A stretch of DNA of 64,000 bases from an uncultured Acidobacteriota bacterium. Lineage in GTDB: Bacteria; Acidobacteriota; JAQAZP01. The position numbers were made by a program, and so were the translations under genes. The notes under the pieces are model-generated. The model was not told the origin of the DNA. It ran no database searches and saw nothing but the letters and a program-made list of their open reading frames with translations. The DNA lies in NCBI GenBank assembly GCA_963836075.1, contig CAWIIB010000001.1:225002-289001 (forward strand). Direction: 5' to 3'. Each line of letters opens with the position of its first letter. Position 1 is the stretch's first letter. Of this stretch, positions 9,347 to 36,580 are shown one piece after another.

Positions 9347-9355
9347 GGGCAGCAC

Positions 9356-16181: not shown

Positions 16182-16333
16182 AACACGGCTCGGCCGTGTC
16201 CGCGGCGGTTGCGGGTGGACATCGGTGCTTCTGGCCCCGGCCAGGAGCATCGATGTTTGTTCACAACTGACCCGGACGGTGCCCAACCAGGTTCCCTGAT
16301 CCGTACCGGCGTCAGTCTGATTTCGGGTGAAGA

Positions 16334-16627
16334 ATGACAGAACAGACACCCCAGACCTGCCCCCACTGCCAATCGGCCCTGTTGCCGTTTCGCACGCCGC
16401 CCAACACTTCGTGGGGCGGCAACATCCACCTGGCCTGCTTCAACGACGAATGTCCCTACTTCGTCCGCGGCTGGAAGTGGATGGCCGAAAAATACGAAGC
16501 CCACGCCTCGTACCGTTTCATGGTCGACCCGGTGAACGGGACCACCGGACCCCTGCCGGTCTGGTCGGCCCAGGCGCTGCGCGACTTGATTCTGCAAGAG
16601 GGCGAAGAGTGGGATTCCGAGGAGTGA
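16334..16627 (+). CDS. small zinc-ribbon-like hypothetical protein (CPHC…CFNDECPYF)
   Basis: 97-aa ORF with four Cys in a CxxC…CxxxC arrangement. It lies 4 nt upstream of the next ORF, in the same operon as qmoABC. Confidence 0.55.
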   Translation: MTEQTPQTCPHCQSALLPFRTPPNTSWGGNIHLACFNDECPYFVRGWKWMAEKYEAHASYRFMVDPVNGTTGPLPVWSAQALRDLILQEGEEWDSEE

Positions 16628-16631
16628 CTGG

Positions 16632-17454: not shown

Positions 17455-17498
17455 TCCCCGAAAGGTAAGAGGCAACCCCTAACGGGAGGAACTGCGAG

Positions 17499-18767: not shown

Positions 18768-18769
18768 CC

Positions 18770-21019
18770 GTGGAAGAGAAACTCGGAGTATTCATCTGCA
18801 CCGGATACGGCATCGGCGAAGCGCTGGATGTGGAGGCGCTGCAGAAGGTGGCCACCGGTGAGTACAAGGCAGCCGTCTGTGAAACCATCGATTCCTGTGC
18901 CGCGGAGGACCTGCAGAAGCTGCGGGCCGCCGCCGTTGAGCAGCAGCTGACCCATGTGGTGCTGGCCGGACGCTCCGGCCGGTCCTACGCTGCCGGCGAC
19001 CTGCCCGACGGTATCGCGGTGGAAACAGTCAACCTGCTGGAGTGGGTTGTGCTGACCCATCCCGCCGGCGACGAGGACACCCAGGCCATGGCGGAGGACT
19101 ACCTCCGCATGGGAATCGTCCGTGTGAAAAAGACCAGCCCCGCCGCGCTATTCGAGGAGCATGACCGCCTGTGCAGGACCATCATGGTGGTGGGCGGCGG
19201 CATCGCCGGCCTCACCGCGGCGCGGGAGGCCGCCGATGCCGGCTACCAGGTGGTGCTGGTGGAGAAGGAAAAGGAACTTGGCGGCTACATGAAAAAGCTG
19301 CACCGCTCCATCCCCACCCGCCCGCCGTACCGCGAGCTGGAGGAAACCGGCATCGAGGCCCTGGTGCAGGCGGTCACCGCCCACCAGAACATCACCGTGC
19401 ACAGCGGAACCACGATCAAGGAGACCCTTGGCGCCCCGGGCCTGTTCACGGTGACCCTCGACGGTGACGGCGCCGGAACGCTGGAGGTGGGCACCTTTGT
19501 CCAGGCCACCGGGTTCCGCCCGGCCGAGCCGGAAAATTTCGAGCACCTGGGGTACGGAAAACTGGCCAACGTGATCACCAACCACCAGCTGGAGGAGATG
19601 GCGGCCAACGGGGGCATCAAGCGTCCGTCGGACGGCGCCGCGGTGAAGAACGTGGCTTTTGTTCAGTGCGGCGATTCCCGAAATCCCGAGACCTTCTCCT
19701 ACGCCTCGGCGATCATGTCGCTCAACGCACTGAAGCAGGCGCTATACGTGCGCGAACAGGGCGAGGACGCCAAGGCCTACGTCTTCTTCGAGCACCTGCG
19801 CACACCCGGCCAGCTCGAAGATTTCTATCGCCGGGTCCAGGAGGACCCCGGTGTCTTCCTCACCCGCGGATCGGTGGATTCGGTGGCCGAGAGTGGCGGT
19901 GGCCTGACCCTGCAGGTCAAGGACACGATGATCGGCGAGGAGATCTCCGTCGAGGTGGACATGCTGGTCCTCAACTCCGGCATGGTCCCTGTGGCCGCCG
20001 ACGGCGAGGCGATCCGCAAGCTGGAAGACTCCAAGGCCATCGTGGCCAAGGGGCCGGAAGATGCCAAGTACAAGGACTCGGTGAAGCGGGTGGAAGAGCT
20101 GGCCAGCCACGAAGGCACGGCTATTCTCAATCTCAACTACCGCCAGGGTCCGGACATGCCGGCGCTGAAGCACGGCTACCCCGACTCGCATTTCATCTGC
20201 TTCCCCTACGAGACCCGGCGCACCGGCGTTTACGCCGCCGGGGCGGTCCGCTCGCCGATGAACGGCAACAGCGCCGCCGAGGATGGCATGGGCGCCGCGC
20301 TGAAAGCGATCCAGGCCGTGGAGATGCTCTCCCGCGGCGAGACGGTGCACCCCCGGGCCGGCGATGTGTCCTTCCCGCACTTCTCCCTCGAGCGTTGCAC
20401 ACAGTGCAAGCGTTGCACCGAGGAGTGCCCCTTCGGCGCCATCAACGAGGACGCCAAGGGAACGCCGGAATACAACGTCACCCGCTGCCGTCGCTGCGGC
20501 ATCTGTCTCGGCGCCTGCCCGGAACGGATCATCAATTTCCCCGACTACGGCGTGGCGCCGGTGGCCGAGATGATCAAGGCCGTGGAGGTGCCCGACGAGT
20601 ACGAGGAGAAGCCCCGGGTGCTGGTGCTGGCCTGCGAGAACGACGCCCTGCCGGCCCTGGAGCGGGCGGCAAACCACGGCCTGTCCTACAGCGGTTTCGT
20701 GCGGGTGATCCCGGTGCGCTGCCTCGGCAGCTGCAACGTGGTCTGGATCAAGGAAGCCATCTCGGTGGGTTTTGACGGTGTGCTGCTGCTGGGCTGCAAG
20801 TGGGGTGACGATTACCAGTGCCACTACATCAAGGGCAGCGAGCTGATGAACACCCGCGGTGACAACATCAAGGAAACCCTGCAGCAGATGTCCATGGAGA
20901 ACGAGCGCGTCCAGCTGCACCAGGTGGAAATCACCGACTACCGGAAGGTGGTCACCCTGATCGAGGAGTTCATGGAAATGATCGAAGAGATCGGCATGAA
21001 CCCCTTCAAGGGCATGTAG
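18770..21019 (+). CDS. qmoB: QmoB, HdrA-like flavoprotein with C-terminal MvhD-like/ferredoxin domains
   Basis: 749 aa with a second FAD fold (IMVVGGGIAGLTAAREAAD), 2x[4Fe-4S] (CTQCKRCTEECP, CRRCGICLGACP) and an MvhD-like C-terminus. Confidence 0.9.
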   Translation: MEEKLGVFICTGYGIGEALDVEALQKVATGEYKAAVCETIDSCAAEDLQKLRAAAVEQQLTHVVLAGRSGRSYAAGDLPDGIAVETVNLLEWVVLTHPAGDEDTQAMAEDYLRMGIVRVKKTSPAALFEEHDRLCRTIMVVGGGIAGLTAAREAADAGYQVVLVEKEKELGGYMKKLHRSIPTRPPYRELEETGIEALVQAVTAHQNITVHSGTTIKETLGAPGLFTVTLDGDGAGTLEVGTFVQATGFRPAEPENFEHLGYGKLANVITNHQLEEMAANGGIKRPSDGAAVKNVAFVQCGDSRNPETFSYASAIMSLNALKQALYVREQGEDAKAYVFFEHLRTPGQLEDFYRRVQEDPGVFLTRGSVDSVAESGGGLTLQVKDTMIGEEISVEVDMLVLNSGMVPVAADGEAIRKLEDSKAIVAKGPEDAKYKDSVKRVEELASHEGTAILNLNYRQGPDMPALKHGYPDSHFICFPYETRRTGVYAAGAVRSPMNGNSAAEDGMGAALKAIQAVEMLSRGETVHPRAGDVSFPHFSLERCTQCKRCTEECPFGAINEDAKGTPEYNVTRCRRCGICLGACPERIINFPDYGVAPVAEMIKAVEVPDEYEEKPRVLVLACENDALPALERAANHGLSYSGFVRVIPVRCLGSCNVVWIKEAISVGFDGVLLLGCKWGDDYQCHYIKGSELMNTRGDNIKETLQQMSMENERVQLHQVEITDYRKVVTLIEEFMEMIEEIGMNPFKGM

Positions 21020-21029
21020 GGCAGGGACA

Positions 21030-22145
21030 ATGAGTACCACAGCAGATCTCCAGTTCGCCAACGACGTGATCCGCGCCGGCGGGTCGGAGGTGATGAAATG
21101 CTACCAGTGCGCCACCTGCTCGGCGGTGTGCGAACTGGCGCCGGTGGACAAGCCGTTTCCGCGCAAGGAGATGATCTGGGCCCAGTGGGGGCTGCAGGAG
21201 CGGCTGATCGGCGATCCCGACGTCTGGCTCTGCCACCAGTGCAACGACTGCACCGTGCACTGCCCGCGAGGCGCCAAGCCGGCGGACGTGATGTCGGCGG
21301 TACGGCAGCTGAGCATCGAGCATTACGCGGTACCCCGGGCCCTGGCCCGGATGGTCAACAAACCCGGCATGCTGCCGCTGCTGCTGGCCATCCCGTCGCT
21401 GGTCATCGGGCTTATATTGATTCTGCTGTACGCCGGCGGGGTGATCGAGCTGGGCGGCCACGAGGTGGAATATGCCAAGATGTTTCCCCACGCCTGGCTC
21501 AACGGCAGCTTCACCATCTTCTTCTTTGTCGCCTGCGGGGCGCTGTTCGTCGGTTTGCGCCGCTTCTGGAACGACATGGACCGGCTGGCCCCGGCAACCG
21601 GGGCGGATCGCAAACCGCTGATCGGCTCGCTGATCGGGCTGCTGCTGGAGTTCATTGCGCACAGCCGTTTCGGCAAGTGCACCGACGACCACTATCGCAA
21701 ACTGTCCCACCTGGGGGTGGTTTTCGGTTTCGCCGGCCTGCTGCTGGTCACCGCCGTGGCCATCGTTTACATCCTGCTGCACCTGCCCTATCCCATGGCC
21801 CAGACCAACCCGTTCAAGATCCTCGGCAACCTCAGTGCCCTGGCCATGCTCAGCGGCCTGCTGGTGCTGATCTTCAAGCGTTTCGAAAAACGTGACACCG
21901 CCCGGGGCAGCACCTACTTTGACTGGTCCTTCCTCGTGCTGCTGCTGCTGGTGGTGGTCACAGGTCTGCTCACCGAGGCGGCCCGGCTGGTGGGCGTGGC
22001 TGCCGTGGCCTATCCGGTCTACTATGTGCACCTGGTTATCATCTGGTCACTCTTCGTCTATGCGCCCTATTCCAAAATGGCCCACCTGGCCTACCGGCTC
22101 ACCGCGCTGCTGCACGCCCGGGTCAATGGCAGGGAGGAGGTCTGA
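21030..22145 (+). CDS. qmoC: QmoC, HdrC/HdrE-fusion membrane subunit (Fe-S plus heme b)
   Basis: N-terminal 2x[4Fe-4S] (CYQCATCSAVC, CHQCNDCTVHCP) followed by a NarI-like membrane domain. Confidence 0.9.
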   Translation: MSTTADLQFANDVIRAGGSEVMKCYQCATCSAVCELAPVDKPFPRKEMIWAQWGLQERLIGDPDVWLCHQCNDCTVHCPRGAKPADVMSAVRQLSIEHYAVPRALARMVNKPGMLPLLLAIPSLVIGLILILLYAGGVIELGGHEVEYAKMFPHAWLNGSFTIFFFVACGALFVGLRRFWNDMDRLAPATGADRKPLIGSLIGLLLEFIAHSRFGKCTDDHYRKLSHLGVVFGFAGLLLVTAVAIVYILLHLPYPMAQTNPFKILGNLSALAMLSGLLVLIFKRFEKRDTARGSTYFDWSFLVLLLLVVVTGLLTEAARLVGVAAVAYPVYYVHLVIIWSLFVYAPYSKMAHLAYRLTALLHARVNGREEV

Positions 22146-24278: not shown

Positions 24279-24596
24279 ATGCCAGTTTTTGAATTCGATG
24301 GACAGGAGATCGAGGTCGACGAGGACGGGTTCATCCAGAATCCCGATGTCTGGAACGACGACATCGCCGCGGCGCTGGCCAAGACCGAGGGTGTCGACGA
24401 ACTGACCGAAGACCACTGGAAGCTGGTCCGCTACCTCCGGGACTACTACCTGCAGTTCGGTATCGCCCCCATGATCCGCAAGCTCTGCAAGGCCACCGGC
24501 TTCTCGCTGAAGACCGTTTACGAACTGTTCCCCAGCGGCCCGGCAAAGGGTGCCTGCAAGGTGGCTGGTCTGCCCAAGCCCACCGGCTGTGTGTAA
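24279..24596 (+). CDS. dsrC: DsrC, dissimilatory sulfite reductase-associated sulfur-carrier protein (TusE/DsrC family)
   Basis: 105 aa ending …KGACKVAGLPKPTGCV, with the two conserved C-terminal arm cysteines. An AAAGGAG RBS lies 7 nt upstream. Confidence 0.9.
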   Translation: MPVFEFDGQEIEVDEDGFIQNPDVWNDDIAAALAKTEGVDELTEDHWKLVRYLRDYYLQFGIAPMIRKLCKATGFSLKTVYELFPSGPAKGACKVAGLPKPTGCV

Positions 24597-24656
24597 ACGG
24601 CATTCAGGTATTTGACGTATTCCCGAAGATGAGAGAAAACCGAGAAGGGAGTTGTG

Positions 24657-25886
24657 ATGGCTGAACCGAAGAAATACGACACCCCCTTGCTGGACGAGCT
24701 TGAAAAGGGTGCCTTTCCCAGCTTCGTGACCGAGATCAAGCGGATGGCCGAGCGCAAGCCGATGGCCGCCGACCTGCTGGGCCAGCTGGAGAAATCGTAT
24801 CGCGACAAGATCGGCTACTGGAAGCATGGCGGCCTGGTTGGCGTGATGGGTTACGGCGGCGGCGTGATCGGCCGCTATTCCGCCCAGAACGAAGAGTTCC
24901 CTGAGGTGTCCCACTTCCACACCATCCGGGTCAACCAGCCCTCCGGCTGGTTCTACAGCACCGAGAAACTGCGCCTGCTCTGCGACATCTGGGACCGCCA
25001 CGGTTCCGGCCTGACCAACATGCACGGCTCCACCGGCGACATCGTCTTCCTCGGCACGCGCACCGAAGAGCTGGAGCCGATCTTCTCCGAGCTGACCGAG
25101 AACGGGTTCGACCTCGGCGGTTCCGGGTCCTGCATGCGGACTCCCAGCTGCTGCGTGGGACCGGGCCGCTGCGAGTGGGCGCTCTACGACACCCTGGCCC
25201 TGACCTACCAGCTGACCATGGACTTCCAGGACGAGATGCACCGTCCGCCGTTCCCCTACAAGTTCAAGTTCAAGATGGCCGGCTGCCCCAACGACTGCGT
25301 GGCCTCCATCGCCCGCGCCGACATGTCGATCATCGGCACCTGGCGGGACGAGATCAAGATCGATGCCGCCGCCCTGAAGAGCGAGTATATCGACAAGGGC
25401 AAAGACATCCAGTCCGACGTGGTCGACATGTGTCCCACCGGCTGCATGAAGTTCGACGGCGAAACCCTGGACATCGACAACGCCAACTGCACCAAGTGCA
25501 TGCACTGCATCAACGTGCTGCACCACGCACTGGCTCCCGGCGATGATCGCGGCGCCTGTATCCTGGTCGGTTCCAAGGCCCCCATCGTCGAGGGCGCGCT
25601 GCTCTCCTCGGTGATCGTGCCCTTCATCAAGCTGGAAACGCCCAAGGAGGGTGAGGATCCCTATCCCGAACTGATGGACCTCGTCGAGAGGATGTGGGAC
25701 TTCTGGGGTGAGAACGGCAAGAACCGTGAGCGGATCGGCGAGATGATCCAGCGGATCGGCCTGGGGAACTTCCTCGACGAGATCGAGGTGGACCCGATTC
25801 CGGAGATGATCGTGCATCCCCGGACCAACCCCTACATCTTCTTCGAAGAGTATTACGAGGACGATGACGAGGACGACGAGGAATAG
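24657..25886 (+). CDS. dsrA: dissimilatory sulfite reductase alpha subunit
   Basis: Siroheme/[4Fe-4S] binding Cys clusters ([31 protein letters not shown]) and an AAGGGAG RBS. Confidence 0.9.
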
Positions 25887-25955: not shown

Positions 25956-27041
25956 ATGGCTGACGAACCCGCCAAAAGAATTACCGATATCGGACCGCCG
26001 CACTACAGCGAGATGCTGCCGCCGATGATCAAAGAGAACCTGGGCAAGTGGAAGGATCACGAGATCGTCACCCCGGGCATCATGTATCACGTGGCCGAAT
26101 CCGGGGACAAGCTGTACACCGTGCGCGTGGCCTCTCCGCGGATCCTCTCCGTGGACCGGATCACGGACATCTGCGACCTGGCCGACAAGCACTGCGAAGG
26201 CTATCTGCGCTTCACCAGCCGCAACAATGTGGAATTCCTGGTCAGCGACGAATCGAAACTGCAGCCGCTGATCGACGACCTGAACAAGGATCCGTTCTTT
26301 GTCATCGGCGGCATGGGCAACGGTATTTCCAACATCGTCCACACCCAGGGCTGGGTGCACTGCCACTCCTCGGCCACCGATGCCTCGGGCATCGTCAAGT
26401 GCGTGATGGACGAGCTGCACGAGTACTTCAGCGAAACCAGGCTGCCGGGCAAGATCCGTATCGCCCTGGCCTGCTGTCTCAACATGTGCGGTGCGGTGCA
26501 CTGCTCGGACATCGCCATTCTCGGTGTGCACCGCCGCCCGCCGAGGATCGACAATGACAACCTGGACAAGATCTGCGAGATCCCCACAACCGTGGCCTCC
26601 TGTCCCACCGGCGCCATCCGGCCGGCCACCGTGGACGGCAAGGAGACGGTGGAGGTGGACGAGGACGCCTGCATGTTCTGCGCGAACTGCTACACCGTCT
26701 GCCCCTCGATGCCGCTCAATGACCCGCTGAACGACGGTATCTCCATCTGGGTTGGCGGCAAGGTGTCCAACGCCCGGTCCGAGCCGAAGTTCTCCAAGCT
26801 GGCCATTCCCTTCATTCCCAACAATCCGCCGCGCTGGCCCGAAGTGACCGAAGCGGTGAAGAATATCATCCAGGTCTACATCGACAACGCCAAACCCTAC
26901 GAGCGGATGGGCGAGATGATCGAGCGGATCGGCTGGCCGAAGTTCTTCGACCTCACCGGCATCGAGTTCACCAAGTATCACATCGATGACTTCAAACATG
27001 CAGGGACGACCTACAAGACGTCCACGCACCTGAGATACTAG
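25956..27041 (+). CDS. dsrB: dissimilatory sulfite reductase beta subunit
   Basis: 361 aa with ferredoxin-like ([17 protein letters not shown]) and siroheme-region motifs. It sits directly downstream of dsrA. Confidence 0.9.
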
Positions 27042-27052: not shown

Positions 27053-27295
27053 ATGGCTGATGTCAGCATCGAGCAGATTGCGGACGAGATGTTCAAGATG
27101 GTCGAAGACGCCTCCGGCAAGCGGAACTACAAGCCGGGCGACCTGGTCAAGGCCATGATGGCCAAGTTCGACGCGGACAAGAAGACCTGCAAGACTGCTC
27201 TGCGGACGCTGATGGACTCCGGCCGCTGTGTCTACGGATACTTCGGCGGAACTTCGGTCCAGTTGCCGCACAAGGAAGGCGCTGCGAACGACTAG
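27053..27295 (+). CDS. dsrD: DsrD (small winged-helix protein, marker of reductive-type Dsr)
   Basis: 80 aa in the conserved position after dsrB, with a lysine-rich winged-helix-like sequence (…KPGDLVKAMMAKFDADKKTCKTALRTLMDSGRCVYGYFGG…). Confidence 0.8.
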   Translation: MADVSIEQIADEMFKMVEDASGKRNYKPGDLVKAMMAKFDADKKTCKTALRTLMDSGRCVYGYFGGTSVQLPHKEGAAND

Positions 27296-27304
27296 CGTAT
27301 GCTG

Positions 27305-27346
27305 GCCGGCGGGGCTCCCGCGGGGGTCCCGCCGGCTGATTTTCCC
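27305..27346 (+). terminator. GC-rich hairpin followed by TGATTTTCC after dsrD; candidate intrinsic terminator
   Basis: GCCGGCGGG…CCCGCCGGC stem with a nested CCCGCGGG palindrome, then a T-run. Confidence 0.5.
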
Positions 27347-27438
27347 TCCGCTCCTGCAGGGGTGTGGGCCCACCTTCGCCGTTGCCCGCGCGGGTTTGCG
27401 GAGGGCCCGGGACCACGGGCCCGGCGCCGGAGCCGGAG

Positions 27439-28848
27439 ATGCGAGAACACTGCCCACGAGTTATGATCGCCGGAATGGGCGGTGATTCGGGTAAGACACT
27501 TCTCTCCCTCGGCCTTCTTTCCTCCTGGCGCCGTGACGGCCTGCGCATCGCTCCGTTTAAAAAAGGTCCCGACTATATCGACGCGGCATGGCTGGCCCGG
27601 CTGTCCGGTGCGGCCTGTCGCAATCTCGATACGTTCCTGATGGGTGACGCTGAGGTGCGTTCCGCCTTTTTCACCCATTCCCGGGGCGTGGATGCGGCCC
27701 TGGTGGAAGGAAACAGGGGACTGTTCGACGGGATCGACGCCGGCGGGCGGCACAGCAGCGCCGAACTGGCCAAGCTGCTGGACACGCCGGTGCTGCTGGT
27801 GGTTGGTGTGCGGAAGGTGACCCGTACCGTGGCCGCCTGGCTGCTGGGGTGCCGGGCGCTGGATCCCGAGCTGAAGATCGCCGGGGTGGTGCTCAACCGG
27901 GTGGCCGGGACGCGTCACGAAAGGGTGGTCAGGGAATCGATCGAATCGATATGTGACCTGCCGGTTGTGGGGGCACTGCCGGTTTTGCCCGAGGGCAGCC
28001 TGCTCCCCGATCGTCATCTGGGGCTGGTCACCCCGGCGGAAAACGACCGTGTTGTGGAGATGGAGGAGCGGCTGGCCGGCATCATCGGCCGCTATGTCGA
28101 TTGCGCCGCCGCCCTGGACCTGGCCCGCCAGGCGCTTCCGCTGGACCTGCCGGAGCGATCAGGGCCTGGAGAGACGACGAGCAGTGGGGAAGGGGTCCGG
28201 ATTGCCTACTTCAGCGATTCGGCCTTCACCTTCTACTACCCGGAGAACCTCGAAGCCCTGGAGAAGCTGGGGGCGGAACTGCTGCCGCTGTCGAGCCTGG
28301 AGTCCACCCGGCTACCCCGGTCCGTGGATGCGCTCTATATCGGCGGAGGGTTTCCGGAGACCCACGCTTCACGCATCGCCGGCAACCGGGGGCTGTTCCA
28401 GTCCCTGGAGCAAGAGGTCGGGCTGGGGCTGCCGGTCTATGCCGAGTGCGGCGGGCTGATTTACCTCGCCCGTGCACTGCGCTGGCAGGGCCGGGAGTAT
28501 CCCATGGCCGGTGTGCTGCCGGTGACCGTGGAACTGGAGCAGCGACCGGCCGGGCACGGATATTGCCGGGTGGGGGTGGACCGCGACAACCCGTTCTTCC
28601 CGGTGGGCACCGAGCTCACCGGACACGAGTTTCACTACTCTCGCGTAGTGGAACAGGGAGTCGACCCCCGGACGGTGTTCAAGGTGCTTCGAGGCTCCGG
28701 AGCGGTGAGCGGGCGGGACGGGCTGGTCAGGGACAACGTGCTGGCCACCTATCTTCACCTGCACGCCCGGGGCACGCCGGCCTGGGCGGCGGGACTGGTT
28801 GGCGCTGCCCGGCGGTTCAGAAAAGAGAGTACGGTGATTAACGAGTAG
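27439..28848 (+). CDS. dsrN: DsrN, cobyrinic acid a,c-diamide synthase homolog (putative siroheme amidase)
   Basis: CbiA/CobB family: an N-terminal P-loop (IAGMGGDSGKT) and a C-terminal glutamine amidotransferase domain (YAECGGLIYL). It sits after dsrABD, as in other sulfate reducers. The start is uncertain, with alternatives at 27364 and 27463. Confidence 0.75.
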   Translation: MREHCPRVMIAGMGGDSGKTLLSLGLLSSWRRDGLRIAPFKKGPDYIDAAWLARLSGAACRNLDTFLMGDAEVRSAFFTHSRGVDAALVEGNRGLFDGIDAGGRHSSAELAKLLDTPVLLVVGVRKVTRTVAAWLLGCRALDPELKIAGVVLNRVAGTRHERVVRESIESICDLPVVGALPVLPEGSLLPDRHLGLVTPAENDRVVEMEERLAGIIGRYVDCAAALDLARQALPLDLPERSGPGETTSSGEGVRIAYFSDSAFTFYYPENLEALEKLGAELLPLSSLESTRLPRSVDALYIGGGFPETHASRIAGNRGLFQSLEQEVGLGLPVYAECGGLIYLARALRWQGREYPMAGVLPVTVELEQRPAGHGYCRVGVDRDNPFFPVGTELTGHEFHYSRVVEQGVDPRTVFKVLRGSGAVSGRDGLVRDNVLATYLHLHARGTPAWAAGLVGAARRFRKESTVINE

Positions 28849-28929
28849 CGAGTTGTTGACCGAGCAGGGCCGGGGCGGGCGCTACCCGCTGCCGGCGCTT
28901 ACACGAACAGAAACTGAGGTGACCTGCAA

Positions 28930-30639
28930 ATGGCGAAGATGGTCAAGAAAAAGAAAAAGAAGAAGTACGGCGCATCGAGATTCGGCGGCGGTTCGGCCGG
29001 CGGATCGGGGGGCGGCAAATCCGACCTCAGGCCCAAATTCGTGGAGAAGACCCCGCCCTGTACCGACAAGTGCCCGAACAACAACAATATCCGCGAAGCG
29101 CTGCGGGTGGTCGCCTCGTCAGAAAAGCAGGGCCGCACCTACGAGCAGTCGCTGGAAGCCGCCTGGTTCACCTTCACCGAGACCTCGCCCTTTCCCTCCG
29201 TCTGCGGACGGGTCTGTCCCCACCCCTGTGAGGGTGCCTGCAACCGCACCGAAGTTGACGGTGCAGTGGGGATCAACGCCTTCGAGCGCGCCGTGGGCGA
29301 CTACGGCATCGAGCAGGGTCTGAAACTGACCCGGCTCACCGAAGAAAAGAGGGAGGAGAAGGTTGCAGTGGTGGGTGCCGGTCCGGCCGGCATGTCCTGT
29401 GCGTTCCACCTGGCGCGACGCGGATACCCGGTGACCGTCTTCGAGGGTTTTCCCCGGGCCGGCGGCATGCTGCGCTACGGCATCCCTCCCTACCGGCTGC
29501 CCCGCAACATCATCGACGCTGAAGTGGCGAAGATCCTCGAACTGGGGGTCGATTTGAAGTGCGACACCGCGGTGGGCACCGATATCAGCTACGATGAGCT
29601 GAAGAACGATTACAAGGCCGTGTTCATGGGCATCGGGGCCCACAAGGGCCGGCAGCTGCGGGTGGAAGGGGAGGAGGCGGCAAATGTCTGGACGGGCGCC
29701 GACTTCCTGCACCGCCTGAACTCCGGGGAGAAGGTCGAGGTGGGGGACAAGGTGATCGTCATCGGCGGCGGCGACAGCGCCATCGATGCCGCCCGGGCTT
29801 CCAGGCGCCTCGGTGCAGATGTCCGGATCATCTACCGGCGGACCATCGAGGAGATGCCGGCCATATCCCACGAGGTGACCGCGGCCCAGGACGAGGGGAT
29901 CCAGATCGATTTCCTCGCCGCACCCGCGGGCATCCAGCTGGACGACAACGGCAAGGCCGTGGCCATGACCTGCATCCGCATGGAGCTGGGCGAGCCTGAC
30001 GAATCGGGCCGCCGCCGCCCGGTGCCGCAGGAGGGGTCGGAGTTTTCAGTGGAGACCACCACCATCATCGCCGCCATCAGCCAGGAACCGGACTTTGACA
30101 ATCTGGAGTTCCTGCGCGAAGGCCGCGACTGGCTCAAGGTGGACCAGCACCAGAAAATGCTCAAATTCGACGACATCTATGCCGGTGGCGATGCCCTGGA
30201 CCTGGCCACGGTGATCCAGGCCATCGCTCACGGCAAGGAGGCGGCGATCACCATCGACGCCAACCTGCGCGCTGAGGAGCGGCCCCGCGGACCGTGGGCC
30301 GACTATGCGGTGATCAAGCACGAGAAGATGAAACTCAGTTTTTACGAGAAGCTGGAGCGTCACGAAGTGCCTGAGCTGCCGGTGGCGGAGCGGTTCGAAA
30401 ACGGGATGGAGAAGGAGGTGGCGCTGGGGCTGAGCCGCGAGGACGGCATCGAGGAGGCCAAGCGCTGTATGAGCTGCGGCCATTGCATGGACTGTGAGAG
30501 CTGCTGGATGTACTGCACCCCGGCGGCGGTGGTCAAACCGGACCAGCCCGGCGGTGACTACGCCTTCAAGCTGGAACTGTGCGACGGCTGCAAGAAGTGC
30601 GCCGAGGAATGTCCCTGTGGCTACATCGAGATGTTCTGA
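28930..30639 (+). CDS. DsrL-like NAD(P)H oxidoreductase (GltD family plus C-terminal 2x[4Fe-4S] ferredoxin domain)
   Basis: GltD-type N-terminal Fe-S motifs (CTDKCP, CGRVCPHPCEGAC), FAD and NAD(P) Rossmann folds (VAVVGAGPAGMSCA; VIVIGGGDSAIDAA) and an extra C-terminal ferredoxin domain (CMSCGHCMDCESC…CDGCKKCAEEC). The N-terminus has a K8 tract. Confidence 0.65.
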   Translation: MAKMVKKKKKKKYGASRFGGGSAGGSGGGKSDLRPKFVEKTPPCTDKCPNNNNIREALRVVASSEKQGRTYEQSLEAAWFTFTETSPFPSVCGRVCPHPCEGACNRTEVDGAVGINAFERAVGDYGIEQGLKLTRLTEEKREEKVAVVGAGPAGMSCAFHLARRGYPVTVFEGFPRAGGMLRYGIPPYRLPRNIIDAEVAKILELGVDLKCDTAVGTDISYDELKNDYKAVFMGIGAHKGRQLRVEGEEAANVWTGADFLHRLNSGEKVEVGDKVIVIGGGDSAIDAARASRRLGADVRIIYRRTIEEMPAISHEVTAAQDEGIQIDFLAAPAGIQLDDNGKAVAMTCIRMELGEPDESGRRRPVPQEGSEFSVETTTIIAAISQEPDFDNLEFLREGRDWLKVDQHQKMLKFDDIYAGGDALDLATVIQAIAHGKEAAITIDANLRAEERPRGPWADYAVIKHEKMKLSFYEKLERHEVPELPVAERFENGMEKEVALGLSREDGIEEAKRCMSCGHCMDCESCWMYCTPAAVVKPDQPGGDYAFKLELCDGCKKCAEECPCGYIEMF

Positions 30640-30681: not shown

Positions 30682-31179
30682 ATGACCATGCTGGCCAGAG
30701 ACCTGATGGTGGATGAGTACGAGACCATCCGCCCCGAGGCCACCGTTCAGGAAGCGATCCGACTGATGCGTTTCACCCGCCACGGGCAGCAGGGGCGGCG
30801 AATTTTCGGCCTGCTGGTTCTGGACGCCCGGGACAAGCTGGCCGGGATGATCTCGATGAGCGACATCCTGCACCATGTCCGGCCCCCGTTCAAGAAAATG
30901 TGGGCCGACACGGTGGGGCTGGCCTGGAGCGGCCAGTTCCAGGCCGCTTGCGAGCGGGCGAAAAAGATGCAGGTCAAGGAGATCATGAACCCCGCGGTAA
31001 TCACCGTGGAGCCGGAGAGCAACATTGCTGAAATAATCGACCTGATGACCAAGCACCACATTCGCCGGATACCGGTGATCTGCGGTCAGCGGGTCTGCGG
31101 AATGGTCTATATATCCGATGTCTTTCACCGTCTTCACCCGTGCCTGCTGGGCACCACCGGCAAGGCCCGTCAGGGCTGA
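30682..31179 (+). CDS. CBS-domain pair protein (paralog 2)
   Basis: Paralogous to 4225..4710 (ARDLMV…GMISMSDIL…VYISDVFHRL). It lies between the dsrL-like gene and sat. Confidence 0.75.
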   Translation: MTMLARDLMVDEYETIRPEATVQEAIRLMRFTRHGQQGRRIFGLLVLDARDKLAGMISMSDILHHVRPPFKKMWADTVGLAWSGQFQAACERAKKMQVKEIMNPAVITVEPESNIAEIIDLMTKHHIRRIPVICGQRVCGMVYISDVFHRLHPCLLGTTGKARQG

Positions 31180-31303
31180 CCGGGGGCGCCGGCACGGGCG
31201 CTGACATGTCTATCTGTCGAGGATTTCAAGGTCTCTGGGAACGCTGCCTGTGATACGCACAGGCAACACGTGAGTTATTTACTCATCAGTGAGGAGCAAG
31301 TGC

Positions 31304-32488
31304 ATGATCAAGCCCCATGGTTCGGAAAAGCTCAACCCGTTGTACGTGGCGGATGACGCCAAAAGAGCGGAACTGCTGGCCGAAGCTGAAGGACTCCCAA
31401 CGGTGGTGGTCTGTTCGGCCGCGGCGGCCAACGCCGTGATGCTGGGCGGTGGCTACTTCAACCCGCTCACCGGCTACATGAACGCCGCCGATGCGCTGGC
31501 GGTGGCGGACAAGATGGTTACCACCGGCGGCCTCTTCTTCCCGGTGCCGGTGCTCAACATGCTGGAGGACGTCTCGGCCATCCAGGGCGCCAAGCGGATC
31601 GCCCTGCGCGACCCCAACGTTGACGGCAACCCGGTGATCGCCATCCAGGACGTGGAAGCCATCGAGGAGTTCACCGACCAGCAGATGGCGCAGATGACCG
31701 AGAAGATTTTCCGCACCGACGATATGGAGCACCCCGGCGTGGCCGCTTTCAACAGCGTGGGCAAGTTCGCCGTATCCGGTCCGATCCAGGTGCTCAGCTT
31801 CTCCTATTTCGCCACCGAGTTCCCCGAAACATTCCGCACCGCCGTCCAGATCCGCGAGGAGATGGCGGCCCTGGGCTGGGAAAAGATTGTCGCCTTCCAG
31901 ACCCGCAACCCGATGCACCGGGCCCATGAAGAACTGTGCCGGATGGCTTACGAGCAGCTGGACGCCGACGGCATCCTGATCCACATGCTGCTGGGCAAGC
32001 TGAAGAAGGGCGACATTCCCGCCGACGTCCGTGACGCTGCCATCCGCAAGATGGTGGAGATCTACTTCCCGCCCAACACCGTTCTGGTCACCGGCTACGG
32101 GTACGACATGCTCTATGCCGGCCCCCGGGAGGCGGTGCTCCACGCCGTGTTCCGCCAGAACTGCGGCTGCACCCATCTCATCGTCGGCCGGGACCACGCC
32201 GGTGTTGGTTCTTACTACGGCGGTTTCGACGCCCAGGCCATCTTCCACGACGAGGTTCCCGAGGGGGCCCTGGAGCTGCAGGTCTTCGAGGCCGACCACA
32301 CCGCCTACTCCAAGAAACTGAACAAGGTGGTGATGATGCGGGACCATCCGGACCACACCAAGGAAGACTACGTTTTCCTCTCCGGCACCAAGGTCCGCGA
32401 GATGCTTTCCAATGGCGAGGACCTGCCGGGTGAGTTCTCACGTCCCGAAGTGGCCAAGATCCTGATGGCCCATTACATGTCGGAGTAG
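31304..32488 (+). CDS. sat: sulfate adenylyltransferase (ATP sulfurylase)
   Basis: Carries the QTRNPMHRAHEEL and GRDHAGVG ATP-sulfurylase motifs, with a GAGGAG RBS 7 nt upstream of the ATG at 31304. Confidence 0.9.
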   Translation: MIKPHGSEKLNPLYVADDAKRAELLAEAEGLPTVVVCSAAAANAVMLGGGYFNPLTGYMNAADALAVADKMVTTGGLFFPVPVLNMLEDVSAIQGAKRIALRDPNVDGNPVIAIQDVEAIEEFTDQQMAQMTEKIFRTDDMEHPGVAAFNSVGKFAVSGPIQVLSFSYFATEFPETFRTAVQIREEMAALGWEKIVAFQTRNPMHRAHEELCRMAYEQLDADGILIHMLLGKLKKGDIPADVRDAAIRKMVEIYFPPNTVLVTGYGYDMLYAGPREAVLHAVFRQNCGCTHLIVGRDHAGVGSYYGGFDAQAIFHDEVPEGALELQVFEADHTAYSKKLNKVVMMRDHPDHTKEDYVFLSGTKVREMLSNGEDLPGEFSRPEVAKILMAHYMSE

Positions 32489-32520
32489 CAAGGCCGCCAG
32501 GCCTGCGCTTGAGACCCATC

Positions 32521-32562
32521 GAGGGCCCTTCCCCGGAGACCGGGGAAGGGCCCTCGTTTTTA
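32521..32562. terminator. strong bidirectional intrinsic terminator between convergent sat and lpxB
   Basis: 16-bp stem GAGGGCCCTTCCCCGG-aga-CCGGGGAAGGGCCCTC followed by GTTTTTA on the + strand and an A-run on the other side. Confidence 0.8.
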
Positions 32563-33767: not shown

Positions 33768-36173
33768 TCAGGTGCGCAGGGTCAGTATCAGGTAGCCTCC
33801 GCCGATGCCGAAGAATATATTCGGCGCCCAGGCCGCCAGCAGGGGTGGCAGGGCGCCGAGATCACCCAACTGCTGGCTGAAGGCGATAAAGATCCAGTAG
33901 AGGATGCCGAGGCTGATGCTGAGTCCGATGCCGTAGAGGCTGCCCCTCTTTCCCATGTTGAAGGCGAAGGCGATGCCCAACAGGGCCATGACCAGCGGCA
34001 CAACCGGCATGGCCAGCTTGGAGTGCAAATCCACCAGCAGTTCCGGTTCCACCTGGTAGCCGCTGGCCTTCAATTCTTCGATATAGGAACGCAGTTCGCC
34101 CCAGCTCATCTGCTCCGTTTCCTTCCACTCCTTCTTGAAGTAGAGCGGTGGCTCGTGGAAGGGAAAGGACTGGGATTTGAAGGCTTCGTAGGACACCTCC
34201 TCACCCCGGGAAAACTCCTTGGACCAGCCATTCTTCATCACCCAGCAGTCATCGCTGTACACGGCGTGGCGGGCATAGGTCCAGCGCTTGAGCGAGAAAT
34301 CTTCCGGCGAGAACTCAAAGACCGAGAGGCCGGCGATCACCTCGCGGTCGAAGTTGATGTTCTCATAGTTGTAGATCCTGTTCTCTTCCTCGCCGAACAT
34401 CCATTTGCGGATGCGGTAGCGGGAACTCACCGGCCGGCCCTTGATCACGTCCCTCAACCGGTCGTATTCGGCGTTGGAGGTGGGCAGTATCCGCTCCTCG
34501 AGGTAGAAGTTGAAGACCGAGGTGAGGGCCGCCACCATGAATACGGAGAGCGATATGCGGTAGAGGCTGATCCCGCCGCCCTTGATCGCCGTCACCTCGT
34601 TGTGTTTGGAGAAGATGCCGAAGGTGACCAGCGTGCTCACCAGGTTGATGATCAGCAGGACAAAGAAAATGATCTGCGGCAGGTAAAACTGGTAGTAGCC
34701 CAGCACCGTGCCCAGGGGGATCTCGTTCTTGACGATGTGGTCGAACATCTGGAAGAAGTCGACGATGATAAACAGGGAGAGAAAGCCGATGAAGACCATG
34801 AAGAAGACGCGGAAATACTGGGAGAGGATGTAGCGGTCCAGCAGGTTGGGGAAGGGGATGTGGATGCGGTGCGAGTTGTGCTGCCGGCGGTCCGTATCGC
34901 GGAAGGGCAGTGGGAGCTGGCCGGTATCGGGGGTGTCCCGGCGCTCCGGGAGGGCCGTGGTGCCGACCGGGGGCCGGGTTTTGGGGGAGAGCCGCAGCAC
35001 CAGCCACTGCCACAGCTTGATCATCAGTGCCGAGAGGTCGAAGTTGACGTTGCGGCTGCGCAGGTTGAGCAGCAGCAGCCCGGCACAGCCCAGCAAAATG
35101 TTGGGCAACCACATGCCCAGCAGTGGTGGAAGTTTCTCCTGGATCGCCATCGCTTCTCCGGTATCGATCATGATCCAGTAGATGATGATCACACCGATGG
35201 CCATGGCGAATCCCGAGGACTTTCCTCCGCGGGAGTTGGTGATGCCCAGACTGATGCCGATGATCGCCAGGACGATGCAGCTGAAGGGAATGGAAAATTT
35301 CTTGTGGATATTGATCCAGGCGAGGTTGTATCTCGATCGCAACTCCGGGGTGCGGCTCTGCCTGGCAATCTCCAGCAGTTCCATGCTGGTTTTGGCCCGC
35401 AGTTTCGGGTCGTGGACCTGGTCCCGCCGGGTTTTCAAGCGGTTTTCCCGCAGCAGGCCGTCCTTGAGCAGCACCCGCATCTCTCCGAACTTGCTGAACT
35501 GGAACTTTTCCGGATCCTTGGGGTCACTGGAATTTATGGTGCCGTTGAAGAATTTGAGCCACAGCCGGTCCGCCTGGTCGTCGTAGCGCAGCTGGGCCCG
35601 GCGAGCATTGATCAGCCGCCGGCCTTCCTCCACCGACGATTCAGCTAGAAACACACCCTCCCAGTCATGTCCTTCAGTGGTGTAATCGTTGAAATATATG
35701 ACCTTATTAGGAAACTCCTCATAGAATGTGCGTGGTTCAACGGTGCTCGACATGGCCAGTGAGAATATTTCCTCCTCCAGGCGGAGCAGTGTCTTGTTGC
35801 CCCAGGGGAGGAAAAATACCATCAGGTAGAGGGTGAGCAGAAACGCGCCGGTGGCAAAAACCAGGGTGGGGCCCAGAAGCCTCTGCAGGCTGATCCCGGC
35901 GGAGCGGAAAGCGATGATCTCACTGTCGGCGGAGAGCCGGCTGAAGGCAACAATAATCCCCAGCAGCACGGACATGGGAATGGTGAGCACGATGATGTGG
36001 GGCAGATTGAGCAGAAAAAGCTTTGTTACCAGCACCAGGCCCAGATTCCTTTTCAGGGCCAGTTCGGCGATATCAAAGATGATATCCATCACCATGACAA
36101 AGGTGAAAATGAGCAGGCTGATCAGCGTGGGGGGGAACATCTCGCGGATCAGATATTTTCGAATGGTTTTCAT
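33768..36173 (-). CDS. lptFG: LPS export ABC permease, LptF-LptG fusion (two YjgP/YjgQ permease modules in one polypeptide)
   Basis: ~800-aa ORF. Both halves start with the family signature (MKTIRKYLIREMF…; …LDRYILSQYFRVFF…) and each has 6 TM segments plus a periplasmic beta-jellyroll region. Confidence 0.75.
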   Translation of the reverse strand: MKTIRKYLIREMFPPTLISLLIFTFVMVMDIIFDIAELALKRNLGLVLVTKLFLLNLPHIIVLTIPMSVLLGIIVAFSRLSADSEIIAFRSAGISLQRLLGPTLVFATGAFLLTLYLMVFFLPWGNKTLLRLEEEIFSLAMSSTVEPRTFYEEFPNKVIYFNDYTTEGHDWEGVFLAESSVEEGRRLINARRAQLRYDDQADRLWLKFFNGTINSSDPKDPEKFQFSKFGEMRVLLKDGLLRENRLKTRRDQVHDPKLRAKTSMELLEIARQSRTPELRSRYNLAWINIHKKFSIPFSCIVLAIIGISLGITNSRGGKSSGFAMAIGVIIIYWIMIDTGEAMAIQEKLPPLLGMWLPNILLGCAGLLLLNLRSRNVNFDLSALMIKLWQWLVLRLSPKTRPPVGTTALPERRDTPDTGQLPLPFRDTDRRQHNSHRIHIPFPNLLDRYILSQYFRVFFMVFIGFLSLFIIVDFFQMFDHIVKNEIPLGTVLGYYQFYLPQIIFFVLLIINLVSTLVTFGIFSKHNEVTAIKGGGISLYRISLSVFMVAALTSVFNFYLEERILPTSNAEYDRLRDVIKGRPVSSRYRIRKWMFGEEENRIYNYENINFDREVIAGLSVFEFSPEDFSLKRWTYARHAVYSDDCWVMKNGWSKEFSRGEEVSYEAFKSQSFPFHEPPLYFKKEWKETEQMSWGELRSYIEELKASGYQVEPELLVDLHSKLAMPVVPLVMALLGIAFAFNMGKRGSLYGIGLSISLGILYWIFIAFSQQLGDLGALPPLLAAWAPNIFFGIGGGYLILTLRT

Positions 36174-36580
36174 CTGGGATCTGGACCGCAAAACGCTGTT
36201 GCTGGGATTCTGGGACAGCCAGCTGTAATAAGGGAATTCATTTACCTCGAAAAGATAGCACAGTTGACGGACGCCTTCAAGAAGTCAGTTCTACGGAAGT
36301 CCTGTTTTTCCAAAGGGATTGGATTGCTCAATGGGGGGGGGAAGGCCGGCGGCGGGGGATCGCCCGCGGAATCCTTGAGCTTCCGGTCAACTCAAAATAC
36401 ATTACGTCCGATAAGATATATTATGTAAACTAATACGCGCGGCAGTGTACAGTCGTAGAGCCAGACAGCTTACTGCAAGCCCCTATATTTTAGATGGTTG
36501 TCCTTCTTTTGGTGCCCCCAAAAGCGGTTTCGTGGTAGTGACCCGATGCGGTCAGGACCATTGATGAGTTGGGGTGTCGA

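Follow-up and report, generated by a model that had tools for sequence, protein, structure and literature searches.

A DsrL-2-type oxidoreductase gene linked to reductive-type dsrAB and its proposed role in NADPH-dependent electron delivery

Introduction

DsrL proteins are described as partners of DsrAB that move electrons between NAD(P)H and sulfite, with reduction of the DsrC trisulfide assigned to DsrMK(JOP) (PMC7596348, PMC10591310). For A. vinosum, NADH-driven sulfite reduction by rDsrAB and DsrL is reported (PMC7596348). The only characterized DsrL-2, that of D. amilsii, contains FAD and [4Fe-4S] clusters and is strictly NADP(H)-dependent (kcat/KM of 870 s-1 mM-1 with NADPH; inactive with NAD(H)). 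In the published tree, this enzyme and the Schekmanbacteria/Zixibacteria/Acidobacteria cluster occupy separate branches of DsrL-2 (Loffler et al. 2020). For the electron donor to DsrAB in sulfate reducers, DsrL-2 is the one documented candidate, and its candidacy is limited to lineages in which it occurs.

The subcluster DsrL-2C is characterized by proximity to reductive bacterial-type dsrAB, in genomes with dsrD and without the oxidative rdsrAB (Diao et al. 2023, PMC10591310); in the literature examined, we found no report of biochemical characterization of its members. DsrL-2 genes beside reductive dsrAB and dsrD were described between 2018 and 2023 in Acidobacteriota, Zixibacteria, Actinomycetota, and others (Loffler et al. 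2020; Diao et al. 2023). The description of DsrL as best known from sulfur oxidizers, used in the original prediction for the present locus, is outdated.

Results

The dsrL gene and its cluster

The window (the whole 64-kb stretch of DNA analyzed) carries the gene order dsrC-dsrA-dsrB-(80-aa DsrD-like ORF)-dsrN-dsrL-CBS-sat, and all features given below are on the + strand. The dsrL gene (28,930–30,639, stop codon included) is a single intact ORF with an ATG start, encoding 569 aa. Its codon-position GC contents (0.63/0.44/0.84) are typical for coding regions of the window, a Shine-Dalgarno sequence read from the DNA, GAGGTGA (28,916–28,922), lies 7 nt 5′ of the ATG, and the alignment with homologs begins at residue 1. 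The top NCBIfam match of the product is NF009410 (PRK12771, "NAD(P)-binding protein" subfamily; score of 586.9 bits, above the cutoff of 516; model positions 36–562 of 566), a generic subfamily that is uninformative about function. We call the gene DsrL type because of its phylogeny, its signature residues, and its conserved synteny. These support the reading, already made in the original prediction, that the gene 3′ of dsrN would encode a DsrL-type enzyme within a reductive-type dsr cluster. More specifically, we regard it as highly probable that the product is a DsrL-2 accompanying reductive DsrAB, of the kind termed "DsrL-2C" by Diao et al. (2023), for which we propose electron delivery from NADPH to DsrAB.

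Both dsrA (24,654–25,886; TIGR02064, 562 bits) and dsrB (25,956–27,041; TIGR02066, 512 bits) are of the reductive bacterial type, and they are preceded by dsrC (24,279–24,596; TIGR03342, 124 bits). Loffler et al. (2020) use gene completeness and dsrAB as criteria for dsrL; the gene here is complete, with dsrA and dsrB 1.9–4.3 kb 5′ of it on the same strand. The encoded DsrA is 55%–70% identical to the DsrA of loci with a DsrD-like ORF and 47%–50% identical to the rDsrA of Desulforhopalus IMCC35007 and of four other rdsrAB-L loci.

The 80-aa ORF that follows dsrB (27,053–27,295) is a DsrD-like winged-helix ORF solely by position, size, fold, and a weak motif; it has no DsrD match in Pfam or NCBIfam, and a PDB sequence profile likewise gave no detection. 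The earlier view that DsrD marks the cluster as reductive needs this qualification. Of the features of DsrL-2C, adjacency to reductive-type dsrAB is present, the putative dsrD is the divergent 80-aa ORF, and the scan for rdsrAB covered the 64-kb window.

A 16-bp GC-rich hairpin with a weak T tract (27,303–27,338), found by pattern matching only, lies in the gap between the DsrD-like ORF and dsrN and is a possible attenuator or partial terminator. The next gene (27,364–28,848; CbiA and GATase_3 domains; NF002204, 425 bits) encodes a CobB-like siroheme amidase homolog, and its context suggests the name dsrN. Downstream of dsrL are a gene for a 165-aa CBS-pair protein (30,682–31,179; two PF00571 matches), which L001, the closest relative, is alone in having at this place, and the sulfate adenylyltransferase gene sat (31,289–32,488; PUA_2 and ATP-sulfurylase; TIGR00339, 387 bits). 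A 17-bp hairpin followed by a T-run (32,520–32,556), recognized by its pattern, is the likely operon terminator after sat. Pfam matches further identify a dsrT-like gene (RsbRD_N) with dsrMKJOP (4926–10,513), an order that adjoins dsrL in related loci, and a segment with aprB, aprA, two small Cys-rich ORFs, and qmoA-, qmoB-, and qmoC-like genes (13,743–22,145).

Domains and cluster ligands

The protein had been predicted to be a GltD-like flavoprotein with Fe-S, FAD, and NAD(P) parts and a C-terminal ferredoxin domain, and the Pfam matches and conserved cysteines agree with this. After a probably disordered N-terminal stretch (aa 1–30; 28,930–29,019; pLDDT ~30), consisting of the basic tail MAKMVKKKKKKK and a Gly/Ser-rich segment, comes the N-terminal Fe-S domain (aa 31–129; 29,020–29,316), recognized by Fer4_20 (aa 40–129), alignment to NfnI-L, NfnA, and StnC, and column conservation. 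The FAD-binding fold with its embedded NAD(P)-binding Rossmann fold (aa 144–446; 29,359–30,267) matches Pyr_redox_2 (aa 144–435), Pyr_redox, and NAD_binding_8, and contains the NADP phosphate motif Y302-R303-R304 (29,833–29,841), a YRR that is invariant in the family alignment. A linker of ~66 aa (aa 447–512; 30,268–30,465), helical at low confidence (pLDDT 47–79), leads to the C-terminal 2x[4Fe-4S] ferredoxin-like domain (aa 513–569; 30,466–30,636). This order of 2x[4Fe-4S] domain, FAD domain with embedded NAD(P) domain, linker, and ferredoxin domain is that given by Loffler et al. (2020).

The C-terminal domain is recognized by its 11 conserved Cys columns and by sub-threshold Fer4 matches: The isolated C terminus matches Fer4_9 (E = 8.8e-5), Fer4_21, and Fer4_7, with E-values from 9e-5 to 6e-4, all under the Pfam gathering scores. 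The motifs are C519-x2-C522-x2-C525-x3-C529 and C551-x2-C554-x2-C557-x3-C561-P. Among dsrAB(D)-linked sequences whose C terminus is complete, the window's included, 29 of 30 keep the Cys columns (L025 ends early). The domain has every cysteine conserved across DsrLs, as a DsrL-like ferredoxin domain should; the AF2 model of this region is of low confidence (pLDDT 43–63).

We mapped the N-terminal cluster ligands following PMC7596348, by way of NfnI-L, as the N terminus of T. maritima NfnB did not align directly. The predicted ligands are S31, R34, C44, and C104 for the distal cluster and C48, C96, C100, and E119 for the proximal one. In DsrL, Cys39 of NfnB is replaced by Ser or Thr, with NfnB residues C47, C51, C90, C96, C100, and E117 conserved (PMC7596348); the window's protein shows this pattern (S31, C44, C48, C96, C100, C104, and E119). 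DsrL-2 proteins that occur with reductive DsrA have Arg rather than Cys at NfnB position 42 (PMC7596348). The corresponding R34 is invariant in the dsrAB(D)-linked sequences (29 out of 29, the window's included) and is Cys, in an S-x2-C motif, in all five rdsrAB-linked sequences. We cross-checked the column mapping against PMC7596348 on Desulforhopalus (Cys) and on Lambdaproteobacteria (Leu); the Leu found in Lambdaproteobacteria agrees with that paper and so validates the mapping.

The combination of S31, R34, and YRR is common to the window's protein, 28 other dsrAB(D)-linked loci, and nine database matches. Since Nfn-like and PFOR-linked homologs have YRR too, the motif is necessary but not sufficient and is undiagnostic alone. 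The insertions of DsrL-1A (~32 aa in the NAD(P) domain and ~30 aa in the linker; PMC7596348) are absent, as judged by that published description: The NAD-domain segment of 75 aa and the linker of ~66–67 aa are as in other DsrL-2 proteins (63–67 aa in relatives), although the linker is shorter than the roughly 100 aa given for DsrL (PMC7596348).

Relatives and gene context

A neighbor-joining distance tree of 62 sequences (550 columns, 100 bootstraps) places all dsr-linked proteins in one clade with 100% bootstrap support and 16 non-dsr homologs outside it. The clade is separate from four non-dsr homologs of the same architecture and from Nfn-like and fused homologs; one of the non-dsr homologs (L042) has a PFOR alpha-subunit gene directly 3′. 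The window's DsrL lies outside the Nfn-like, fused, and PFOR-linked paralogs, so the kind of placement that the original prediction had named as a refutation did not come about. It pairs with L001 (100%) in a subclade (86%) of dsrAB-linked loci and close database matches, and the rdsrAB-linked proteins form a separate clade (89%).

Three published DsrLs, listed by Loffler et al. (2020), fall inside the dsr-linked clade: A2161_21820 (OGL46692; P0092) of Ca. Schekmanbacteria RBG_13_48_7, 59% identical to the window's protein; that of Desulforhopalus IMCC35007 (L019); and that of Lambdaproteobacteria RIFOXYD2_FULL_50_16 (L034). Since the DsrL-1 proteins of A. vinosum and C. tepidum, the DsrL-2 of D. 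amilsii, and the NfnB of T. maritima are outside the tree, subtype placement draws on motifs, these three published anchors, and gene context. The relatives of the window's protein sit in the Schekmanbacteria/Zixibacteria/Acidobacteria cluster of the published DsrL-2 tree.

Gene context follows the tree. Among reductive-group relatives, 30 out of 31 adjoin dsrA, dsrB, a DsrD-like ORF, or dsrN, and 26 out of 31 have the 80-aa ORF; outside the DsrL clade, dsr adjacency occurs in 0 of 44 loci (L039–L082 except L063). An 89%-identical relative shares the order D-N-L-CBS-sat-lpxB-lptFG, and a 62%-identical relative has qmoAB-dsrABDN-L-dsrC-dsrT-dsrMKJOP. The host itself belongs to a deep-branching lineage, its DnaE being only ~50% identical to that of any named relative.

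Three other identities were considered and rejected. A glutamate synthase small subunit (GltD) would be expected to score above the equivalog cutoffs, but the protein falls far below them (TIGR01318, 275 vs. 483 bits; TIGR01317, 193 vs. 448; TIGR01316, 328 vs. 472), and there is no GltB-like neighbor. For an NfnB or SudA type, the neighbors (dsrN and the CBS gene), the distal ligands Ser31 and Arg34 in place of Cys, and the position outside the Nfn-like clade do not fit. A homolog linked to PFOR or ketoisovalerate:ferredoxin oxidoreductase is set aside by the flanks, which are dsrN on one side and the CBS-pair gene then sat on the other, consistent with the non-linkage that Loffler et al. (2020) use as a criterion.

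The basic N-terminal tail

A poly-lysine N-terminal tail is conserved in, and specific to, the reductive-type DsrL-2 subgroup. The mean net charge of the first 15 aa is +5.8 among 30 reductive-linked homologs, compared with −1.2 in the rdsrAB-linked ones, and the basic tail together with Arg at the distal cluster occurs in essentially all dsrAB-D-linked DsrLs and is absent from the rdsrAB-linked ones. We found no mention of an N-terminal Lys tail in the DsrL literature searched. As a tentative idea, to which we give rather less than even credence, the tail, its Gly/Ser spacer, and the adjoining Cys-to-Arg ligand change might form a subgroup-specific docking or tuning device. If so, electrostatic attraction could let the tail anchor DsrL at DsrAB/DsrC, or at the membrane in the vicinity of DsrMKJOP, and the tail could contribute to setting the direction of electron flow.

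Proposed function and direction of electron flow

By analogy with the D. amilsii enzyme, the likely role of DsrL here is NADPH-dependent electron delivery to DsrAB. NADPH would bind the embedded Rossmann fold, with Y302-R303-R304 accommodating its 2′-phosphate, and would reduce FAD. Electrons would then pass to the two N-terminal [4Fe-4S] clusters, the distal one with its unusual Ser31 and Arg34 and the proximal one with the predicted ligand Glu119, and, in a putative relay, would reach the ferredoxin domain at the C terminus, which is joined by a flexible linker and would have two further [4Fe-4S] clusters. This domain may dock on DsrAB and so feed siroheme-catalyzed sulfite reduction; DsrC would take the partly reduced sulfur as a trisulfide, which the membrane complex DsrMKJOP encoded in the window would reduce. 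We infer NADPH specificity, the DsrAB partner, and the reductive direction from the literature on related enzymes. Strict NADP(H) dependence is predicted because it is a property of D. amilsii DsrL-2, and since that enzyme is on a separate branch, the predictions of NADPH specificity and of DsrAB as partner are both carried over from one DsrL-2 branch to another.

A true DsrL-2 could also work mainly or additionally in the oxidative direction or in disproportionation, passing electrons from DsrAB-bound sulfur to NADP+, and the cluster would then point to a sulfur metabolism that is reversible or disproportionating; the original prediction had likewise raised a pathway running both ways. In vitro, DsrL-2 enzymes do work in either direction, oxidizing NADPH and reducing NADP+; disproportionation of sulfur compounds occurs in some organisms that possess DsrD and DsrL along with reductive DsrAB (Ferreira 2022); and Loffler et al. 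caution that direction is not readable from genes alone (PMC7596348). We nevertheless consider this unlikely here, as the window gives no sign of a pathway that runs both ways. The 64-kb window has neither dsrEFH nor a second, oxidative rdsrAB, despite holding the whole sat-apr-qmo-dsr set; it includes a gene for a DsrD-like activator; the Arg34 variant is the one found with reductive DsrA, the Cys variant going with rDsrA; and exactly such a gene combination is proposed as a reductive indicator by Diao et al. (PMC10591310).

Very improbable is a direct use of NAD(P)H by DsrL to reduce the DsrC trisulfide (or disulfide), which would make the enzyme a soluble bypass of DsrMKJOP. Although dsrC is in the same cluster, and directly 3′ of dsrL in many relatives, and the DsrL family descends from pyridine nucleotide:disulfide-type oxidoreductases, the published biochemistry pairs DsrL with DsrAB, and no DsrC-trisulfide reductase activity is reported in the literature examined. 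The window and most relatives also keep a complete dsrMKJOP, contrary to a bypass. The NAD(P)H:DsrC-trisulfide activity first suggested for this protein, as a route to DsrC alongside DsrMKJOP, accordingly gives way to the documented assignment of DsrAB to DsrL and of the trisulfide to DsrMK(JOP) (PMC7596348, PMC10591310).

A further alternative is that the protein belongs to the generic NADPH:ferredoxin-type oxidoreductases (GltD, NfnB, SudA, or PFOR-associated) and lies in the cluster by chance. Its generic NCBIfam match, its nearest solved structures (NfnA and StnC modules of NfnABC/StnABC, then NfnI-L and NfnB), and the identical architecture of PFOR-linked proteins might suggest this, but it is scarcely credible and largely refuted by the fully supported split in the tree, the dsr adjacency confined to the DsrL clade, the GltD/GltA equivalog scores, and the lack of any NfnA, GltB, SudB, or PFOR gene beside dsrL.

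Discussion

The core of the original prediction is correct, while its further suggestions of the DsrC trisulfide as partner and of a pathway running both ways are weaker. The locus is an ordinary instance of an arrangement already described in many uncultured sulfate reducers. It leaves the current picture unchanged, since DsrL-2 beside reductive DsrAB and DsrD already serves in genomes to indicate that sulfur metabolism is reductive. What the locus offers is a cleanly assembled case, from a lineage that is deep-branching and of Gram-negative type, in which sat, aprBA, qmoABC, dsrC, dsrAB, a DsrD-like ORF, dsrN, dsrL, and dsrT-MKJOP lie within 30 kb, and this complete set makes it a convenient source for expressing cognate DsrAB, DsrC, DsrD-like protein, and DsrL-2.

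Among known systems, the closest solved structures are NfnA of NfnABC (9bov_A and 9n5u_A), StnC of StnABC (8oh5_C), NfnI-L (5jca_L), and T. maritima NfnB (4ylf_B), which are 36%–38% identical to the window's protein; in Foldseek, NfnA, StnC, NfnI-L, and NfnB are matched with E-values from 1e-31 to 1e-43. These NfnB-type modules share the N-terminal two-cluster domain, the FAD and NADP folds, and YRR. However, their partners are different (NfnA/NfnBC or Stn subunits) and their function is flavin-based electron bifurcation; the C-terminal ferredoxin module of DsrL is missing from them or replaced by a formate-dehydrogenase-like extension; and their first two distal-cluster ligands are Cys where the window's protein has Ser and Arg.

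The DsrL-1A/1B proteins of A. vinosum and C. tepidum and the rDsrAB-linked DsrL-2 proteins have the same four-domain architecture and partner enzyme family. By the published description used for comparison here, DsrL-1 works with NAD(H) and is devoid of YRR, and both the substrate domain and the linker are longer in DsrL-1A (PMC7596348). The rDsrAB-linked DsrL-2 proteins (for example, those of Desulforhopalus sp. IMCC35007, Magnetococcales, and Nitrospinota) are 43%–50% identical to the window's protein and differ from it in having Cys in place of Arg34, acidic rather than basic N termini, a 36- to 51-aa insertion in the NAD(P) domain (in four out of five), and no adjoining DsrD-like ORF. The D. 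amilsii DsrL-2, also compared by description, is alike in domain order, in having YRR, and in going with reductive DsrAB. The window encodes the full sulfate-reduction pathway, whereas sat and apr are missing from D. amilsii (Ferreira 2022).

The closest likeness is to the major DsrL-2 cluster, or DsrL-2C, found for example in Ca. Schekmanbacteria RBG_13_48_7 (OGL46692), Zixibacteria, the acidobacteriotal "Ca. Sulfopaludibacter," and Ignavibacteria (Loffler et al. 2020; Diao et al. 2023), with 57%–62% identity over the full length of ~560 aa. The two have in common S-x2-R, YRR, the Glu ligand, the C-terminal Cys pattern, and the Lys-rich N terminus, as well as a position within dsrAB-D-(N)-L clusters that have dsrC and dsrMKJOP close by. 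Differences are at the lineage level only: In the window, dsrL is followed by the CBS-pair gene and sat, and in the others by dsrC and dsrT-MKJOP.

The gene, its domains, and its cluster

The dsrL-type gene (window 28930–30639, + strand) is one open reading frame of 569 codons with an ATG start and GAGGTGA 7 nt upstream. Its codon-position GC content (0.63/0.44/0.84) is the coding signature found elsewhere in this 62% GC window, and the protein is alignable with its homologs from residue 1 onward. Pfam assigns residues 40–129 to Fer4_20 (the DPD/GltD-type Fe-S domain) and residues 144–435 to the pyridine-nucleotide-disulfide oxidoreductase fold. The final 57 residues hold 11 family-conserved cysteines, including two canonical CxxCxxCxxxC motifs, and when scanned alone give sub-threshold matches to Fer4_9, Fer4_21, and Fer4_7. 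On the same strand, dsrC, dsrA, dsrB, an 80-aa ORF, and a CobB-like dsrN lie 5′ of the gene; a CBS-pair gene, sat, and a strong hairpin terminator follow it in that order. The original prediction's description of the gene is therefore accurate. The AF2 model (pLDDT 71; low in the N-terminal tail and C-terminal domain) best matches the solved structures of NfnA of NfnABC, StnC of StnABC, NfnI-L, NfnB, and GltD, in keeping with the kinship of DsrL to NfnB described in the literature.

Nearly the entire dissimilatory sulfate-reduction toolkit occupies one strand over ∼32 kb (297–32556). Sirohaem and tetrapyrrole genes (a cobA/hemD fusion, 297–1847; hemB, 1860–2834; an aminotransferase-III + CBS fusion, 3196–4710) are followed by dsrT-MKJOP (dsrT-like), aprBA, qmoABC (qmoABC-like), a PAS/sigma-54 activator, dsrC-ABD-N-L, CBS, and sat. 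Extra redox or Cys-rich genes interrupt the cluster at two places: an HdrD/DsrK-like protein (Fer4_8 + CCG) between dsrP and aprB (11712–13151), and a 97-aa Ogr/Delta-type zinc-finger ORF with a 166-aa CxxCxxCC (YkgJ-type) protein between aprA and qmoA (16334–17132). Directly 3′ of the 80-aa ORF and 25 nt 5′ of dsrN, a GC-rich hairpin of 16 bp and its weak T tract (27303–27338) could act as a transcription attenuator, setting dsrN-dsrL-CBS-sat apart from a highly expressed dsrC-A-B-D unit. Outside the cluster, LptF and LptG appear fused in a single LPS-export permease gene (33768–36191, − strand), since both families match one 807-aa ORF (residues 10–375 and 450–803, respectively); its counterpart in the closest relative (89% identity) has 802 aa.

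Relatives and gene context

A handful of metagenomic relatives match the protein at 77%–93%. Beyond them are hundreds of ∼560-aa proteins at 57%–62% identity from Zixibacteria, Omnitrophota, Schekmanbacteria, and others, one labeled by JGI "dissimilatory sulfite reductase flavoprotein subunit." Another of these proteins (P0092) is locus tag A2161_21820 of Ca. Schekmanbacteria RBG_13_48_7; the same entry, OGL46692, is listed as DsrL and placed in the DsrL-2 cluster (Loffler et al. 2020, PMC7596348).

A scan of GTDB species genomes gave 80 loci, for whose annotation the Dsr proteins of the window served as tblastn queries; the counts below also take in two loci obtained by exact look-up. The gene adjoins dsrA, dsrB, the small ORF, or dsrN at 30 of 31 loci of the reductive group (48%–89% identity; DsrA 55%–70% identical to the window's), and the 80-aa ORF follows dsrB in 26. 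Five rdsrAB-linked loci (43%–50% identity) have a neighboring DsrA only 47%–50% identical to the window's, and none has the small ORF beside dsrAB. Desulforhopalus IMCC35007, a member of this group, is documented as rdsrAB-L2 (Loffler et al. 2020, PMC7596348). Dsr linkage was found at none of 44 loci outside the DsrL clade (L039–L082 except L063; 33%–47% identity), and the fetched stretches of three DsrL-clade loci (Lambdaproteobacteria, SAR324, and one Gemmatimonadota) contain no dsr genes. The closest relative (L001, 89%) has an order identical to the window (D-N-L-CBS-sat-lpxB-lptFG), and a 62% relative reads qmoAB-dsrABDN-L-dsrC-dsrT-dsrMKJOP.

The sole reductive-group DsrL-2 gene with no dsrAB within 7 kb (L038:7001–8677, Acidobacteriota bin48 chromosome CP070717.1) is divergent and lies beside sat and aprBA. 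The window's DnaE (52913–56656, − strand) has five close metagenomic relatives at 81%–87%; its best other matches reach only ∼50%, with labels scattered over Acidobacteriota, Deltaproteobacteria/Thermodesulfobacteriota, and Nitrospirota. The lineage of the host seems deep and poorly named.

Phylogeny and signature residues

In a neighbor-joining tree (62 sequences, 550 trimmed columns, Kimura distances, 100 bootstraps), a single clade with 100% support holds all dsr-linked proteins, the target included. Outside it fall the fused and Nfn-like homologs and also four proteins that share the architecture but are not dsr-linked. One of the four (L042) has a PFOR alpha-subunit gene directly 3′; criterion 3 of Loffler et al. 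(2020, PMC7596348) excludes this PFOR-linked class from DsrL. Within the clade, the rdsrAB-linked proteins group separately (89%), and the target pairs with L001 (100%) in a subclade of dsrAB-linked loci and close database matches (86%). The four non-dsr proteins (L042:66–3091, L046, L053, and L075; ∼550–600 aa) form a sister clade with the same four domains, YRR, and the Glu ligand. They have W-R-x-x-R-P where reductive DsrL-2 has S-x-x-R-P, so Arg34-Pro35 is common to reductive DsrL-2 and the PFOR-associated group.

According to Loffler et al. (2020, PMC7596348), NfnB Cys39 is replaced by Ser or Thr in all DsrL; Cys42 becomes Arg in DsrL-2 with reductive DsrA, remains Cys in DsrL with oxidative rDsrA, and is Leu in two Lambdaproteobacteria; YRR marks DsrL-2. 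The target has S31-x2-R34 and Y302-R303-R304. The S/R pair and YRR occur in all 29 dsrAB(D)-linked sequences, the window included, and S/C in all five rdsrAB-linked ones. S/L is found in a SAR324 relative and in the Lambdaproteobacterium, which agrees with the published residue and thus independently confirms the column mapping. The other inferred cluster ligands (C44, C48, C96, C100, C104, and E119; mapped via NfnI-L, NfnA, and StnC alignments) are conserved. The target's NAD domain and linker contain no DsrL-1A-type insertion. Four rdsrAB-linked proteins (L029, L030, L033, and L035; 609–627 aa) have an NAD(P)-domain insertion of 36–51 aa, larger than the ∼32 aa described for DsrL-1A.

Residues 1–30 (28930–29019) form a conserved N-terminal tail, MAKMVKKKKKKK followed by a Gly/Ser spacer, which is probably disordered. 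Over the first 15 residues, net charge averages +5.8 in 30 reductive-dsrAB-linked DsrLs and −1.2 in rdsrAB-linked DsrLs; among the 120 top database matches, 115 have +4 or more. The Lys-rich tail is specific to the reductive-linked subgroup and covaries with the change of the ligand from Cys to Arg. Loffler et al. (2020) use neither "lysine" nor "N-terminus," and none of the papers searched has "DsrL" together with "lysine-rich"; the tail is the only detail here that may be unreported.

The DsrD-like ORF

The 80-aa ORF (27053–27295, + strand), called DsrD in the original prediction, recurs at 26 loci with its position and sequence conserved; the database entries of its homologs are mostly labeled "hypothetical." AF2 models it as a winged helix with three helices (pLDDT 87), and hhalign aligns it weakly with DsrD (E = 0.075) in the expected register, its Y-x-Y-F-G-G-S opposite the Desulfobacterota YWSSGSTT motif. 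Position, fold, and this match favor the name, whereas the Pfam DsrD model and a sequence profile search against PDB DsrD were both negative. Cys59 (GRCVY) is nearly invariant in the family and Cys46 frequent; the DsrD of Desulfobacterota, by contrast, is described as having no cysteine. Following the literature on such phyla, we regard the ORF as a divergent DsrD, the homology being putative.

Function and comparison with known systems

Synteny, the neighbor-joining clade, and the signature residues uphold the DsrL assignment. The DsrL-2 of D. amilsii carries [4Fe-4S] clusters along with FAD and depends strictly on NADP(H); A. vinosum DsrL and rDsrAB form a functional unit coupling NADH to sulfite, for which the Fe-S clusters are dispensable in vitro; and the authors conclude that NADPH is the donor for sulfite reduction by reductive DsrAB-L2 (Loffler et al. 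2020, PMC7596348). By analogy with this biochemistry, electrons in the target would pass from NADPH to FAD, on to the N-terminal clusters, then to the C-terminal ferredoxin domain and DsrAB, with the cycle to be completed by DsrC and DsrMKJOP. The proposed DsrC-trisulfide partner is unsupported; DsrAB is the documented partner of DsrL. Operation in both directions, also suggested originally, is likewise unsupported: The window contains neither dsrEFH nor rdsrAB, and reductive DsrAB with DsrD and DsrL-2C is defined as a reductive indicator (Diao et al. 2023, PMC10591310).

The characterized D. amilsii protein and the relatives of the target sit on separate DsrL-2 branches. The reductive DsrAB/DsrD/DsrL-2C combination itself is reported from Acidobacteriota, Zixibacteria, Bdellovibrionota, Armatimonadota, Actinomycetota, Myxococcota, and several candidate phyla (PMC10591310). 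The gene was correctly identified; both its type and its arrangement are known, and its lineage is one without close named relatives.
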